From: a virus
Direction: 5' to 3' (one strand)
Virus record (IMG/VR): IMGVR_UViG_3300021429_002604
Location: 1-64,000 of that record
Length of the DNA stretch: 64,000 nucleotides
Part shown: positions 1-9,890 of the stretch, in pieces
Layout: each line of letters opens with the position of its first letter
Position numbering within the stretch: the first letter of the stretch is position 1
Made by a program: the position numbers and the translations under genes
The notes under the pieces: generated by a model
The model's input: the letters and a program-made list of their open reading frames with translations, nothing else
Told to the model about the DNA's origin: nothing
Database searches by the model: none

Positions 1-2
1 CG

Positions 3-614
3 GGAGTTAATGGATCTCCAGGAAACAATGGTAACAACGGATCTTCTGGAACATCAGGAACATCATTTAGTGTCACCGCTACCACTACCAATTCAACGTT
101 CTATCCTGTTTTCGTTCTTGGTACTGGTGTACAGACACCTAATATTAGAACGACAGCGTCGGCACTCCGATTTAACGCTTCCACCTCCGAATTAGCCGCA
201 GGTAGTTTAGTAAGTGACGGGGATGTTTATGCAGTAAGATCTCTAGGGGTTGGTATGGGTCCATCGGCTGTAACCGGACAAATAGATGCAGCAGCTGATA
301 TTATTGCATTCTCTACATCGGACATCAGATTAAAGGATGGAATTAGTCCAATAGAGAACAGTTTAGAAAAACTTTCAGCCATCTCGGGGGTCAATTATAA
401 ATGGAAGCCGGAGTTCAATGATATCCACGGGTACAAAGATAAACAAGATGTCGGAGTTATCGCTCAGGAGGTATTAAGTATTCTACCCGAAGCTGTTAGA
501 CAAAACGCAACTGGATACTACTCGGTTAGATACGAAAGAATAATTCCTTTGCTAATTGAAGCAATCAAGGAGCAACAAAAACAAATAGATGAACTAAAAT
601 CTAAATTAAAGTAA
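3..614 (+). CDS. Tail fibre C-terminus (5'-partial) with G-X-X repeats and peptidase S74 intramolecular chaperone domain
   Basis: The frame of the 255..614 ORF is open back to base 3 (GVNGSPGNNGNNGSSGTSGTS...). The C-terminus has the S74 pattern SDIRLKDGI..I...LEKL..I.GV.Y.WK...VGVIAQEV...LPEAV...Y.RIIPLLIEAIKE. Confidence 0.9.
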   Translation, partial: GVNGSPGNNGNNGSSGTSGTSFSVTATTTNSTFYPVFVLGTGVQTPNIRTTASALRFNASTSELAAGSLVSDGDVYAVRSLGVGMGPSAVTGQIDAAADIIAFSTSDIRLKDGISPIENSLEKLSAISGVNYKWKPEFNDIHGYKDKQDVGVIAQEVLSILPEAVRQNATGYYSVRYERIIPLLIEAIKEQQKQIDELKSKLK

Positions 615-615
615 A

Positions 616-1146
616 ATGGGATTCGTAGTAAACAAAGAAATAACAACAGATAATGGCAGAGCCTTTTCCAGTTTTTACGTGAGAATAGACAGTTATATTA
701 TTAATAAGATCACCGGATTTCTGGCTGTTAGTGCGGGACATTATTCAGATAAAGAAGCTGCAGCTCAGTCGTATGTGGAGGATGGAATAAATTCCAGTGG
801 CAGAATAAGCTATAATATATCGTATGACGATATCTTGAATTCACAGTTTTCACACGTAAGAAGATATCCGCTGACTGAAACAGTAACAGTTCCGATACAA
901 GTTAGAAAATCTGACTGGTCACATGAGTTGATAGAGTATATCGACTTCGACGAGAATGGAAATGAGGTAGTAAAAGAAAGACGCGAATGGACTGAAATTG
1001 TCACGTATGAAACTGAGAATCAGACGAGAACCAGGATAAATATAGATCTTGTAAATGATAACGTGTATCAATATGCATATAATCGATTAATAGAGGAATA
1101 TGGGGATATATTCGGAAGCGCAAATATTATAAACGAAACGATTTAA
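616..1146 (+). CDS. Hypothetical protein, tail-fibre associated by position
   Basis: 176 aa ORF starting 1 nt after the fibre stop; no motif recognised. Confidence 0.7.
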   Translation: MGFVVNKEITTDNGRAFSSFYVRIDSYIINKITGFLAVSAGHYSDKEAAAQSYVEDGINSSGRISYNISYDDILNSQFSHVRRYPLTETVTVPIQVRKSDWSHELIEYIDFDENGNEVVKERREWTEIVTYETENQTRTRINIDLVNDNVYQYAYNRLIEEYGDIFGSANIINETI

Positions 1147-1148
1147 CT

Positions 1149-1622
1149 ATGGGTGTATTATATCTTCCATCTGCTACCGACATTAATGTCCCTACATATT
1201 TTACAGCATTAATAGGTGTTTCCTCCTCTGATGTTAGTTTTAAAAATGTACTTGAAGACACTGATCCACAAATCAATCTCACTACCAATCTTGCACTTAA
1301 CTATTATACCGGTATAGCTGGTGGGTATGCCCTTTTTAACTTAGCGATAAAATCCAGTAACGGGTCACGAGGTTATGTTGAGGTTACTTATCCATGGTCG
1401 CAGCAATCGACAGGTGTCACCACCATCGGTAACACTAAACAGGCGTACGAGTATTATGGTAGTACTATAGATATAAATGCAATTGGAATATACCCCTTTA
1501 CTTTTTCCTATTGGTATGAATCTAGTTCTGCTACCTTTTACTACACCAGCAATTTATCATTTTCCGCGTTAAGTGGGGAAACACAGGATCCTTTTGCTTT
1601 ATTTACTGCTTATTTTGCATAA
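1149..1622 (+). CDS. Hypothetical protein (S/T/Y-rich, possibly structural)
   Basis: 157 aa ORF tightly packed in the operon. Confidence 0.7.
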   Translation: MGVLYLPSATDINVPTYFTALIGVSSSDVSFKNVLEDTDPQINLTTNLALNYYTGIAGGYALFNLAIKSSNGSRGYVEVTYPWSQQSTGVTTIGNTKQAYEYYGSTIDINAIGIYPFTFSYWYESSSATFYYTSNLSFSALSGETQDPFALFTAYFA

Positions 1623-1660
1623 AATTATAAACCAAATTAGTAACCATTAAATGCTTAAAT

Positions 1661-7380: not shown

Positions 7381-7390
7381 ATGGTTTTTT

Positions 7391-7419
7391 GAAACTATTG
7401 GACATAAAACAACTAAAAA
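7391..7419 (+). promoter_or_regulatory. Class II promoter: GAAAC-N18-TAhAAw
   Basis: GAAAC(7391)...TAAAAA(7414), 21 nt before ATG 7435. Confidence 0.65.
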
Positions 7420-7434
7420 TAGTAAATTTTAAAT

Positions 7435-7707
7435 ATGAGCGAACAAATTAAATTGCCAGAGGAACTTCTATTAGAAATTCAGGCATTAAAGGATGAATTA
7501 ACCGAGAATGTTATTAGAATCGGAAGATTAAATGTACAGAAATCTTTTTACGAGAAGGACCTTAGAATGTTAGACCTAGAACTTGATGCACTTTATGGCC
7601 AAGCGGAGGTTATTTCTAAGAAAGAGGATGATCTTCAGATAAAGGTTGTCGGCCAATATGGTAGCGGGAAATTAGATTTCGAGAGCGGTATTTTTTCAAA
7701 GGAGTAA
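7435..7707 (+). CDS. Small coiled-coil hypothetical protein
   Basis: 90 aa ending in YGSGKLDFESGIF; preceded by a class II promoter motif. Confidence 0.75.
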   Translation: MSEQIKLPEELLLEIQALKDELTENVIRIGRLNVQKSFYEKDLRMLDLELDALYGQAEVISKKEDDLQIKVVGQYGSGKLDFESGIFSKE

Positions 7708-7713
7708 TTTTTC

Positions 7714-8694
7714 GTGATGGTATCTGAGCACAACCAAGAGATTCCTAGAATCTTATACGTCTCCCCACACCTTTCCACTGGTGGTCTCCCTCAGTATCTT
7801 TGGAAGAAAATAGAATCTTTCAATGATGTTGCAGAGGTTTACTGTGTGGAATACAGTTATTTGGGAGATGCTTATGTTGTCCAGAGAAATAGAATATCTA
7901 ATCTACTTGGCGAAAGGTTCATACCTATATTTAATGATGCCAATCGATTACTGGAGATTATATCTGATATAAATCCAGATATTGTGCACTTTGAGGAATT
8001 CTGCGAAAGTTTTGTTGATGATGCTGTTTTACAAAAGATTTTTTCTGATGATAGAAAATATCTAATATGTGAAACATGTCACAGTTCTGTCACATCGGTT
8101 CAGAGCAAAATCTATCGTCCCGATAGATTTGTCATGGTTTCTAAATGGATAGACCAGAAGTTTAGCAATCTGGGTGTACCCTCCGAGATATTGGAATATC
8201 CGATAGAAGATTTAATACCAAATAAATCCAAGACCATGGAGTTGCTTGGTATGGACCCGAATTACAAGCATATAGTAAATATTGGACTTTTTACCCCTGG
8301 AAAAAATCAGGGTGAAATTTTTGAATATGCTAATGAAACATTAAAAAGGGATCTACCAATTAGATATCATTTTATTGGAAACACCGCTGATAATTTTAAG
8401 GATTATTGGGGTCCTTTATTAGAGAACAAACCAGATAATTGTTATATCTGGGGAGAAAGAAATGATGTTGATCTTTTCTATCAGGCTGCGGATCTTTTTT
8501 TGTTTACCTCCAACTTCGAATTAAACCCACTTTCGATAAAAGAAGCTTTATCGTGGAAAATTCCTTCGGTTTTTAAAAGATTGGATACTTATCTGGACAC
8601 TTATGATGATATGGAGAATGTATTTTATATTACTAACAACAGGGAGTCTAATCTTTCTTTAATACTAAATATACTAAATCCAGAATGGAAATAA
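7714..8694 (+). CDS. GT-B glycosyltransferase (family 4-like)
   Basis: PHLSTGGLPQY, KNQGEIFE, FYQAADLF.F.S..ELNPLSIKEALS; GTG start. Confidence 0.85.
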   Translation: MMVSEHNQEIPRILYVSPHLSTGGLPQYLWKKIESFNDVAEVYCVEYSYLGDAYVVQRNRISNLLGERFIPIFNDANRLLEIISDINPDIVHFEEFCESFVDDAVLQKIFSDDRKYLICETCHSSVTSVQSKIYRPDRFVMVSKWIDQKFSNLGVPSEILEYPIEDLIPNKSKTMELLGMDPNYKHIVNIGLFTPGKNQGEIFEYANETLKRDLPIRYHFIGNTADNFKDYWGPLLENKPDNCYIWGERNDVDLFYQAADLFLFTSNFELNPLSIKEALSWKIPSVFKRLDTYLDTYDDMENVFYITNNRESNLSLILNILNPEWK

Positions 8695-9890
8695 GCAAAA
8701 ATTCTATATCGGTTTATTCAGGAATAAACAAAGCTGGTTCAATGTACATCGAATCAAATGTTGAACCCAAGGTTCATATGTGGTTTGATTATTACCCTAA
8801 GATATCCGTTTCCGGTAAAAATATCGAGGGAGGATCTAATAGATTTACGACCATTATAAGAGATGGGTCTGATATCATCTACACGGCAGAAATTCACACT
8901 GGAATGTTTTCTAATGCTTTTAAAAGAGGAGTATTTGATTGTACGATGGAAGCATACGATGAGAAGGGGATTTTAGTTGATCGATTCTCCATGCTGGAGT
9001 ATTTTAAATCTGGAAAGGTTTGTGTTTCTATCGATAGTGCATCTTTGGGTGATAATATAGCTTGGGTACCTTACATAGAGGAGTTTAGGAAAAAATACGA
9101 AATTCAAAATCTAATAGTTACCACTTTTTATAACGATCTTTTTGATGGCCAATATGAGAATATCACATTCAGACCTCCTGGGTACAGAGAGGATGGTATG
9201 TCTGTCATTATTGGTGTTGGGTGGTACCAGGAGGAAGATAGGAATATGCATAAGATCGATCCGAGAACAATACCTTTGCAAAAGGTAAGTAGTGACATTC
9301 TCGATGTTGAGTACTCCGGCGAAATTAGACCACTAATTAATAAAAAAATAAATCCAAGACCCACTAATAAGAAATACGTTTGCATTGCAACCGAATCCAC
9401 TGCAGGTGCTAAATATTGGCACTATCCTGGTGGGTGGCAAAGATTAGTAAATCTGTTAAAAAGTGTTGGTTATGAGGTGGTACTTATCCAAAAAGAAGCC
9501 AATTCACTGAACGGTGTTTTGGATCTAAGCGGGGATATTCCAATTGGGGACAGAGTAAGTGACCTACTTCAATGCGAGTTTTTCATCGGATTAAGCTCCG
9601 GATTATCATGGCTTTCGTGGGCTTTAGGAGTACCAACAGTCGTTATCTCTGGATTTACTGATCCTTTTCTTGAATTCTCTGACAGATGTCTTCGTATTAT
9701 AAATCGTGATGTTTGCCATGGATGCTTTACTAAAACCGAGTATAAATTCGATAGAGGAGATTGGTGGTGGTGTCCGGTTCACAAGGGAACCGATAGATAT
9801 TTTGAATGTACGAAAACAATAAAGCCCGAAGACGTCTTTATTTCTATATTGGATTGGATCGAATCCGATTATACAAAGGGATCCAACTAA
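8685..9890 (+). CDS. TibC/Aah-like (autotransporter-type) heptosyltransferase, GT9-related
   Basis: SLGDNIAW, YVCIATESTAGAKYWHYPGGWQ, FIGLSSGLSWLSWA, and a four-Cys iron finger CHGC...WCP.H...FECTK. Confidence 0.85.
   Translation: MEISKNSISVYSGINKAGSMYIESNVEPKVHMWFDYYPKISVSGKNIEGGSNRFTTIIRDGSDIIYTAEIHTGMFSNAFKRGVFDCTMEAYDEKGILVDRFSMLEYFKSGKVCVSIDSASLGDNIAWVPYIEEFRKKYEIQNLIVTTFYNDLFDGQYENITFRPPGYREDGMSVIIGVGWYQEEDRNMHKIDPRTIPLQKVSSDILDVEYSGEIRPLINKKINPRPTNKKYVCIATESTAGAKYWHYPGGWQRLVNLLKSVGYEVVLIQKEANSLNGVLDLSGDIPIGDRVSDLLQCEFFIGLSSGLSWLSWALGVPTVVISGFTDPFLEFSDRCLRIINRDVCHGCFTKTEYKFDRGDWWWCPVHKGTDRYFECTKTIKPEDVFISILDWIESDYTKGSN

Follow-up and report, generated by a model that had tools for sequence, protein, structure and literature searches.

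A TibC-like heptosyltransferase behind a collagen-like tail fibre gene of a giant T4-like phage, and its likely acceptor

Introduction

Why would a phage carry a protein heptosyltransferase, and which protein would such an enzyme modify? These questions are raised by the first 64 kb of IMG/VR virus record IMGVR_UViG_3300021429_002604 (a 127-kb record, referred to here as G000, with a CheckV completeness estimate of 46%), a stretch of 64,000 nucleotides that we call the window. Its source is an uncultured giant T4-like phage. At the start of the window, 13 plus-strand open reading frames (ORFs), overlapping or tightly packed, occupy positions 3-9890; the first is the end of a collagen-like tail fibre gene and the last encodes a bacterial autotransporter heptosyltransferase (BAHT; TibC/Aah type, TIGR04414). 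The initial annotation, whose genes for positions 1-9890 are all present where it had placed them on the plus strand, took nine enzymes behind the fibre gene as one system with which the phage hydroxylates and glycosylates its own virion proteins (fibre, sheath, and capsid loops). We lean, with modest confidence, toward a reading in which two fibre-linked modification modules lie side by side behind the tail fibre gene and the BAHT O-heptosylates serine residues of the fibre.

The viral BAHT loci analyzed here are the best 80 IMG/VR loci, and the proteins of the cluster were searched against 79 of these. A megablast search of positions 1-12000 against GenBank phages gave no DNA-level match. 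IMG/VR holds close relatives, including G001, a 270.6-kb record that is 99% complete; the locus of another relative, G002, is L005.

Results

The TibC-like enzyme retains catalytic and donor-binding residues

The gene at 8685-9890 (plus strand) matches TIGR04414 (hepto_Aah_TibC; autotransporter strand-loop-strand O-heptosyltransferase) with 236.7 bits against a curated cut-off of 200, and its product aligns with TibC (PDB 4RAP) at 2e-50 over residues 60-381, with approximately 35% identity. In TibC, Asp-110 is the catalytic base, Thr-226, Lys-230, Arg-286, and Trp-305 are ligands of ADP-heptose, Pro-300 (Ser-294 in Aah) is a switch of D,D/L,D selectivity, Cys-339/342/358/370 form a 1Fe-0S iron finger, and the tip of a beta-hairpin thumb (Phe-265/Val-266) joins dimers into a dodecamer ring (PMC4358343). 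Alignment to TibC places D123 at the catalytic position of the window enzyme and T239, K243, R290, and W309 at the ADP-heptose-binding positions; the D, K, and W positions are invariant in all 94 alignment rows. The four iron-finger cysteines (C344/347/363/375) are all kept and are invariant in alignment A1. The selectivity position holds S304, a serine as in Aah, and is glycine in most of the clade. Since the catalytic, donor-binding, and iron-finger residues are kept, donor binding and catalysis look intact, and the enzyme appears from its sequence to be a bona fide BAHT that probably uses ADP-heptose. The initial annotation, which had recognized a TibC/Aah-like heptosyltransferase with a four-Cys iron finger, was correct on this point.

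In TibC, residues 1-97 form a flattened beta-barrel. The alignment with TibC begins at query residue 59-60, and the 58 residues before it are conserved among members of the phage clade. The thumb is approximately 9-10 residues shorter than that of TibC: the segment from K243 to R290 comprises 46 residues, compared to 54-55 in all 18 basal rows, and the tip is deleted. This deletion is common to 40 of 76 derived-clade rows and to none of the 18 classical rows.

Directly upstream, and overlapping the start of the BAHT gene by 10 nt, lies a gene for a GT4 (GT-B) glycosyltransferase (7714-8694, plus strand), previously annotated as such and confirmed here by a Pfam Glycos_transf_1 match of 31 bits against a cut-off of 26.4. 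It is preceded by a gene for a 90-amino-acid predicted coiled-coil protein (7435-7707, plus strand), which is found directly upstream of GT4 and BAHT in T4-like relatives and has a homologue in 23 of the 79 viral BAHT loci. We refer to the stretch at 7435-9890 as module B and to the enzymes encoded at 1661-7380 as module A. A GT4 homologue is present in 60 of the 79 loci, and one protein of 700 amino acids (P0112) is a fusion of GT4 and BAHT. The neck gene recurs in 27 loci and one oxygenase of module A (6793-7380) in 4, while homologues of the other module A proteins (the DUF6734 proteins, the DxD pair, the radical-SAM-like protein, and the first oxygenase at 6082-6789) were found in none of the 79. 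Because GT4 recurs in most loci, a fusion exists, and the enzymes of module A mostly do not recur, we consider GT4 and BAHT to be the conserved core.

Viral BAHT homologues matched at least 587 stretches. Among 50,697 GenBank phage records, the enzyme occurs in only 4, one of which labels it an FkbM methyltransferase, so that this biology has been invisible in cultured phages. In Microcystis phage Mel-JY01 (PP395634.1; L109 4750-8430), a 1226-amino-acid 'methyltransferase FkbM' ends in a BAHT domain with 42% identity to the window protein, and its gene neighbours encode a structural protein and a 639-amino-acid 'cytidylyltransferase like protein'; this phage is cultured and could be used for testing the hypothesis. 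A second, divergent BAHT-like domain (approximately 36-40% identity) forms the C-terminus of a 774-amino-acid protein in G001 (169345-171669; L023:9345-11669) and in G005 (at approximately 187 kb).

Many BAHT genes lie near Ser-rich collagen-like genes

Since classical BAHT genes adjoin the gene of their substrate, the acceptor of a BAHT may be sought in its gene neighbourhood. The Salmonella Aah-like gene, for example, overlaps the start of AIDA-I, and AIDA repeats or autotransporter domains occur in 5 of 6 checked neighbours of basal bacterial BAHT homologues. We found that the viral enzymes have a different neighbour. Within 7.5 kb of the BAHT gene, 31 of 57 non-redundant viral loci contain a Ser/Thr-rich collagen-like ORF (60 or more amino acids of Gly-X-Y, with Ser/Thr making up at least 60% of the X and Y residues), compared to at most 16% predicted from the density of such genes in BAHT-bearing genomes (binomial p = 3e-11). 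This count is conservative because many loci end within the repeats; indeed, counts of collagen neighbours are underestimates in general, since the repeats are assembly breakpoints at which many related contigs also break. All five complete or near-complete genomes (270-349 kb) have a BAHT gene within 6 kb of a Ser-rich collagen gene, of which each genome contains one to three, and the strand, side, and order of the two genes vary. AIDA repeats (PF16168) had no match in G000, G001, or G005-G007.

The association extends to bacteria. The closest bacterial BAHT homologues are flanked, at 55-900 bp, by small proteins (126-293 amino acids) that match Pfam Collagen and consist of GSS/GTS triplets. 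These loci are chromosomal, with a LysR regulator, a two-component system, a thymidylate synthase, and a pyrophosphatase alongside. Gammaproteobacterial carriers belong to Arenicellales, Acidiferrobacterales, and Methylococcales (L178 8449-8829 and 11192-11818; L200 11139-12020; also L179, L181, L182, L185, and L204), and their pairs of a BAHT and a small collagen protein look like a bacterial counterpart of the phage pairing. We know of no description of such a bacterial pairing.

In a maximum-likelihood tree of 94 rows, with the AIDA-linked enzyme of Salmonella as the root, a single clade of 77 rows (SH-aLRT 99) includes every viral row as well as all 41 rows that have a collagen neighbour, and none of the 17 basal AIDA-linked rows has one; the rows are related to one another, and counts of loci or rows are not counts of independent events. 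A shared hitch-hiking artefact is nevertheless unlikely, since gene orders differ, bacterial pairs exist, and the clade structure agrees. The composition of the repeats follows the same pattern. Serine occupies the Y position in 72% of 6070 triplets of viral BAHT-linked ORFs and in 68% of those in bacteria, with approximately 0-2% Pro and no Lys, compared to 1% in the fibres of phages that have module A and no BAHT. Taken together, the neighbourhoods and repeat sequences suggest that, among possible acceptors of the window BAHT, the most likely is the collagen-like fibre of the phage itself with its Gly-(Ser/Thr)-Ser repeats. The fibre portion of the original proposal is thus supported by comparative evidence, and nothing points to the sheath or capsid as a target.

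The truncated fibre gene and other collagen-like proteins

The fibre gene of the window (3-614, plus strand) is truncated by the contig start, and only the C-terminal 203 amino acids, including just 7 Gly-X-Y triplets, are therefore within the window. Its translation and Pfam matches show these last triplets, then a stalk, and then a Peptidase_S74 intramolecular chaperone (PF13884, 2e-16). The homologous fibre of G002, whose C-terminal end is 81% identical to the window fragment, is 1327 amino acids in length and contains several long (G-S/T-S)n blocks between globular domains, and the counterpart in G001 matches Pfam Collagen at 6e-20. The opposite end of the G000 contig, outside the window, also interrupts a Ser/Thr-rich collagen-like gene (126625-127437).

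Two small genes follow the fibre gene on the plus strand. The first (616-1146) encodes a 176-amino-acid protein with an unassigned fold, which is conserved directly after the C-terminal end of the fibre in L005 and in the BAHT-less loci L265 and L267-L270; it is possibly an accessory protein or the tip of the fibre. The second (1149-1622) encodes a 157-amino-acid protein rich in Ser, Thr, and Tyr that is conserved in L005 and L265. Neither protein has a Pfam, PHROG, or NCBIfam match. In G002, a 6-kb insertion (L005 11273-17003) separates the BAHT gene from the neck gene and holds an ORF of 886 amino acids as well as short collagen-like ORFs, with no Pfam match. A different type of collagen (G-P-x with Pro and Lys, in segments of 8-11 triplets) occurs in three tandem paralogous proteins of 514-727 amino acids that are conserved across relatives (G000 104794-110215, outside the window; G001 102909-108340; G005 244461-249517).

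The phage probably encodes the first two steps of heptose supply

If the BAHT uses ADP-heptose, is any part of this donor supplied by the phage? The gene at 35574-36551 (plus strand) encodes a probable heptose-7-phosphate kinase (HldE domain I/HldA) that matches TIGR02198 (rfaE_dom_I) over its full length with 324 bits, just under the cut-off of 345; the next-best sugar-kinase family reaches just 72 bits, which agrees with the earlier assignment of an HldE kinase domain. The kinase is present in all five records of this phage group. Outside the window, G000 encodes a probable sedoheptulose-7-phosphate isomerase, GmhA (115589-116182), whose match is full-length and just below the trusted scores (NF001628, 235.9 bits against 265; TIGR00441, 187.7 against 209), and a near-equivalog is also found in G001. 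Thus, the claim that the phage supplies part of its own heptose donor is supported for the first two steps, with the kinase in the window and GmhA elsewhere in G000. We also considered whether a phage kinase is needed wherever a BAHT occurs and rejected this idea, as none of the four other complete BAHT-bearing phages carries one.

The later steps look different. A genome search had been suggested for gmhA, gmhB, and HldE domain II, and only gmhA was recovered. TIGR00213 (GmhB) had no match in the five records, of which G000 is only 46% and G001 99% complete, and the sole HAD protein found by a HAD-IIIA search in G001 is HAD_SAK_2, of RNA-repair type. The sole adenylyltransferase candidate is a doubtful one, a G001 nucleotidyltransferase of 147 amino acids with a score of 56 bits against 181.5, whose gene has AAA+ and HAD_SAK genes as neighbours. 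HldD was not found in G001, in which the heptose-epimerase model matched only generic short-chain dehydrogenases/reductases (SDRs) resembling GDP-mannose dehydratase. Since GmhB was not found and only a doubtful adenylyltransferase is present, even in the relative that is 99% complete, the host probably completes the ADP-heptose pathway. The initial annotation had favored a host with heptose-free lipopolysaccharide (LPS); this is unsupported, and the gap in the pathway argues against it because it implies that the host finishes ADP-heptose. The two SDR genes of GDP-mannose-4,6-dehydratase/epimerase type in G001 (224531-225565 and 196419-197396) suggest further phage-encoded tailoring of sugar nucleotides.

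Module A encodes further transferases and two oxygenases

Upstream of module B, seven plus-strand genes encode the enzymes of module A. The product of 1661-2548 is a DUF6734-like probable GT-A glycosyltransferase, whose language-model neighbours carry PF20508 (score 0.99) and whose homologues are syntenic in L265-L270 with 53-58% identity. The adjacent gene (2545-3534) encodes a DUF6734 protein (Pfam 8e-14) with a conserved D120-x-D122 and a predicted GT-A/GT8-like glycosyltransferase fold; Foldseek matched its AF2 model (pLDDT 92) to LgtC, LARGE1, and glycogenin at probability 1.0. These two proteins share a weak local match (E 0.007), family membership being otherwise based on language-model similarity only. 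The genes at 3485-4276 and 4276-5040 encode two GT-A (DxD) glycosyltransferases that are paralogues with 42% identity and an invariant D-W-D. The model of the latter (AF2 pLDDT 90) has a retaining GT8/GT24-like fold and is closest, by Foldseek, to the UGGT catalytic domain, XXYLT1, glycogenin, and PBCV-1 A64R, a protein of chlorovirus capsid glycosylation. Of the two paralogue pairs of DxD proteins proposed earlier, the second is therefore genuine, while the first consists of distant family members rather than close paralogues.

The next gene (5045-6079) encodes a radical-SAM-like protein with an N-terminal SPASM/twitch-like Cys cluster. Its family likeness, the part of the previous 'radical SAM protein' assignment that stands, consists of matches to N_Twi_rSAM (2e-13; 50 bits, below the cut-off of 170), phrog_14086 (6e-6), and SPASM (18.9 bits, below cut-off). 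Neither the CX3CX2C motif nor a PF04055 (Radical_SAM) match was found in this protein, which instead contains a non-canonical C101-X12-C114-X2-C117. Its N-terminal group of five cysteines (5, 23, 24, 65, and 70) corresponds to the weak SPASM match, and C101, C114, and C117 are the sole other candidate cluster ligands. Two 2-oxoglutarate (2OG)-Fe(II) oxygenases follow, as annotated: one of Oxy_5/phrog_81 type at 6082-6789 (2OG_Oxy_5; phrog_81 6e-17), conserved in module A of L265-L271, and a P4H/PKHD (PiuC)-like enzyme at 6793-7380 (2OG_Oxy_3, PF13640, 55 bits; PiuC 2e-9) with the motif H114-x-D116...H172. In L085, L088, L091, and L099, a collagen gene and the BAHT gene flank an oxygenase of the latter type. 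Searches of PDB sequences with the proteins encoded at 5045-6079, 6082-6789, and 7714-8694 (GT4) gave no useful relative.

An alignment search with the DxD pair recovered module A in distant phage contigs, at 33-73% identity, in the order fibre C-terminal domain, 176-amino-acid protein, two DUF6734 proteins, one to four DxD transferases, radical-SAM-like protein, and both oxygenases. In all five informative loci, which represent four distinct phages (L268 and L269 are near-duplicates), module A is syntenic and immediately follows the gene of a collagen-like fibre; these fibres share their C-terminal domain, at just 33-48% identity. GT4 and BAHT were not found in these contigs, which are 9-41% complete, and their fibres have a different composition, with 1% Ser, 45% Thr, and 14% Lys at the Y position in triplets of the types G-P/A-T, G-x-Q, and G-x-K. 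Modules A and B abut in G000 and G002; in G001, most of module A is substituted by a methyltransferase-like protein, DUF7936, and a 401-amino-acid protein of unknown type. The nine enzymes are therefore not one unit, as had been assumed, but two separable modules: only GT4 and BAHT recur with Ser-rich collagen genes, and the other seven exist without a BAHT. We also asked whether the P4H-like oxygenase tracks proline at the Y position, which occurs in 8 of 71 triplets in G000 and 9 of 45 in G001, in none in G002 (which is without this oxygenase), and in 0 of 218 in L085 (which has it). The relationship fits four of five cases and fails in L085, and we dropped it as evidence.

Genomic context and expression motifs

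Nearly all genes of the window are on the plus strand. Its origin from a T4-like myovirus shows in genes for a neck protein, a tail sheath, and a large terminase of T4 type and in a pair of gp20-type portal genes. The portal genes are full-length and in tandem (32317-33927 and 33932-35554; Portal_T4 7e-58 and 9e-67, respectively).

The motif GATATATA occurs 13 times in the window, always on the plus strand (at 9905, 15081, 25756, 28010, 32249, 43822, 44597, 47319, 47978, 51114, 58103, 59990, and 61930), compared to 6 copies expected, and 2 of 100 shuffles reach 13. Most copies are just upstream of virion genes, including those for the neck, sheath, and portal, which makes GATATATA the probable core of the late promoters in this phage group. 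For TATAAATA, the late promoter of T4, no enrichment was seen in the window (5 matches against 9.5 expected).

Evidence against fibre heptosylation and alternative targets

Several observations weigh against heptosylation of the fibre by this cluster. The acceptor is inferred from gene neighbourhood, and G001 and G008 contain further Ser-rich collagen genes that are distant from the BAHT gene. Fibre genes and glycosyltransferases both cluster in phage host-recognition clusters, in which the transferases are usually read as LPS-modifying (PMC7029224). The shortened thumb suggests that assembly of the enzyme, and even its activity, may differ from TibC. On the side of the donor, the kinase is absent from all four other complete BAHT-bearing phages, and GmhB is missing from the records of this group. 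GATATATA was not found within 1-9890, which gives no sign of late co-expression with virion genes; because of this absence, the cluster is either co-transcribed with the fibre gene or not late. Finally, the radical-SAM assignment at 5045-6079 is weak on sequence grounds, and the target of module A is far less certain than that of GT4 and BAHT because module A occurs without a BAHT and behind fibres of other composition.

Could the cluster act on something other than the fibre? The transferases might alter the envelope of the infected host (its LPS core, O-antigen, capsule, or surface glycoproteins), so as to block superinfection or prevent progeny from adhering to debris, with GmhA and the kinase as LPS-type auxiliary genes. 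This is the conventional reading of rfaE and glycosyltransferases in aquatic myophage host-recognition clusters (PMC7029224; PMC10202952), gmhA is commonly listed among viral auxiliary genes, the GT-A proteins are GT8-like with the LPS galactosyltransferase LgtC as the best match in structure comparison, and the cluster has no internal late-promoter-like motif. We nonetheless consider it unlikely. The BAHT family heptosylates proteins rather than LPS, and the window protein keeps all functional residues; enzymes of this clade are also paired with small collagen-like proteins on the chromosomes of bacteria, away from any phage; the composition of the acceptor tracks the BAHT (Y-position Ser of 72% with a BAHT and 1% without); and module A is always directly behind the fibre gene. 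A protein target in the host, such as an autotransporter or a collagen-like surface protein, would agree with the adhesins modified by classical BAHTs, and the pairs of a BAHT and a small collagen-like protein in bacteria of several phyla indicate that a host could have acceptors. However, the phage itself encodes kilobases of matching repeat beside the enzyme, AIDA repeats are absent from the five phage genomes searched, and modifying a host protein has no apparent benefit for a lytic T4-like phage, which leaves such a target with very little probability.

Module A might make or tailor an unusual nucleotide sugar or small molecule and be linked to the fibre merely through a shared mobile host-range cassette, with only GT4 and BAHT acting on the fibre. 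Module A is indeed separable from GT4 and BAHT and occurs without them, other genes take its place in the close relative G001, and radical-SAM and 2OG enzymes are, as a matter of general knowledge, common in the tailoring of sugars and natural products. Set against this are its strict synteny behind fibres that share a C-terminal domain at 33-48% identity, fold matches that include glycoprotein-specific transferases (UGGT, XXYLT1, and glycogenin, as well as PBCV-1 A64R), and a second oxygenase that is P4H/PKHD-like, with associated tracts that hold Y-position Pro (8/71 and 9/45) or Lys (14%); we regard the cassette explanation as improbable. Hypermodification of DNA, which the initial annotation had named as the alternative, would follow the pattern of the TET/JBP-glycosyltransferase islands of some phages: a base would be oxidized by the oxygenases and decorated by the radical-SAM enzyme and the glycosyltransferases. 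The enzyme classes do resemble those of phage hypermodification islands, as is generally known, but the oxygenases match 2OG_Oxy_3/PKHD and Oxy_5 with no Tet/JBP family in Pfam scans, a BAHT is a protein O-glycosyltransferase, and the cluster lies in a block of virion genes beside the fibre rather than among genes of replication or nucleotide metabolism. DNA is accordingly a very improbable target.

Discussion

Fibre heptosylation, the reading we favor, would extend two known kinds of system, protein heptosylation by BAHTs and glycosylation of phage virions. The closest known pairs are TibC-TibA and Aah-AIDA-I of E. coli (PDB 4RAP/4RB4; PMC4358343), with which the window enzyme shares the hidden Markov model family, the catalytic Asp, the donor-binding Thr, Lys, Arg, and Trp, and the four-Cys finger. 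In both cases, the enzyme is (or, for the phage, would be) cytoplasmic, with a donor from the LPS-precursor pathway, and its gene adjoins that of a highly repetitive, Ser-rich extracellular fibrous protein. The window BAHT differs in being approximately 35% identical and part of a separate, well-supported clade with all viral members, in its shortened thumb, in its GT4 partner, in being encoded by a lytic phage, and in its neighbour, which is a proline-free Gly-(Ser/Thr)-Ser collagen-like protein and not an AIDA-type beta-helix. Among phages, Freeman et al. reportedly showed in 2023 that glycosyltransferases encoded beside structural genes of the mycobacteriophages Che8, Corndog, and Myrna O-glycosylate Ser/Thr-rich parts of virion proteins. 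That system has other enzyme families, hosts, and acceptors (C-terminal extensions of capsid and tail-tube proteins) and is not known to involve heptose, collagen repeats, or donor genes.

Glycosylated collagens offer a further comparison. BclA of Bacillus anthracis has GPT repeats with O-linked rhamnose-anthrose, the lysyl hydroxylase/glucosyltransferase L230 of Mimivirus acts on viral collagen, and in the cuticle collagen of Riftia, galactosylated Thr at the Y position stabilizes a triple helix that is poor in hydroxyproline. Features that the proposed system would share with one or another of these are O-glycans on the hydroxy amino acid at the Y position of Gly-X-Y, and a 2OG hydroxylase and GT-A enzymes that act on collagen; the fibres of phages with only module A are rich in G-P-T, as is BclA. 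Unlike the system proposed here, BclA, L230, and Riftia collagen are not known to involve heptose or a BAHT, and Pro and charged residues are almost absent from the Gly-(Ser/Thr)-Ser repeats of the window type. With respect to the donor, the phage kinase, with 324 bits, and GmhA, with 236, come close to equivalog level for the enzymes of the first two steps in the ADP-heptose pathway (GmhA, HldE/HldA, GmhB, HldE/HldC, and HldD). Viral auxiliary copies of rfaE and gmhA occur in pelagimyophages (PMC7029224). In the present case, the same phage also encodes a consumer of the product, the BAHT, and both supply genes score just below trusted cut-offs.

The enzyme identities, conserved catalytic and donor-binding residues, and genomic associations described here suggest an acceptor, a transferred sugar, an order of steps, and a role for the glycan. 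GmhA and the kinase would raise flux from sedoheptulose-7-phosphate, and host enzymes would complete ADP-heptose. In the infected cytoplasm, the BAHT would use this donor to O-heptosylate serines at the Y position of Gly-(Ser/Thr)-Ser repeats while the fibre chains are nascent, for which the obvious acceptors would be the products of the fibre gene cut by the contig start and of the second such gene at the far contig end. GT4, which appears to be translationally coupled, would probably add or extend a second sugar, and module A would probably elaborate the same fibre through further glycosylation and hydroxylation. By analogy with Riftia and BclA, the glycans may stabilize a proline-free triple helix, and they may also shield or mask the fibre or tune adhesion. 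The shortened thumb suggests an assembly unlike the TibC ring, as might be expected if the substrate is an unfolded chain or a thin triple helix and not a beta-helix.

A broader possibility, which we put forward only tentatively, is that a distinct phage and bacterial clade of TibC-like enzymes exchanged AIDA beta-helices for proline-free, collagen-like Gly-(Ser/Thr)-Ser helices as the substrate. Dense heptosylation of Y-position Ser, together with the activities of GT4 and module A, would then allow half-micrometre fibres to form from triple helices that are otherwise unstable and give the virion a glycan coat fed by phage GmhA and kinase. We found no published description that links a phage BAHT, or any BAHT, to collagen-like repeats.

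If fibre heptosylation by the BAHT is correct, virion glycosylation, which is documented for very few phages, would be widespread among large environmental phages, as judged from matches in at least 587 viral stretches. Virions would carry heptose, attached by an enzyme family known so far only from the maturation of adhesins in pathogens, and the Gly-X-Ser collagen sequon would represent a new class of BAHT acceptor. Such modification would explain the stability of proline-free collagen-like fibres. Furthermore, phage gmhA and rfaE, listed as 'LPS auxiliary genes', would be re-read as a donor supply for the decoration of virions.

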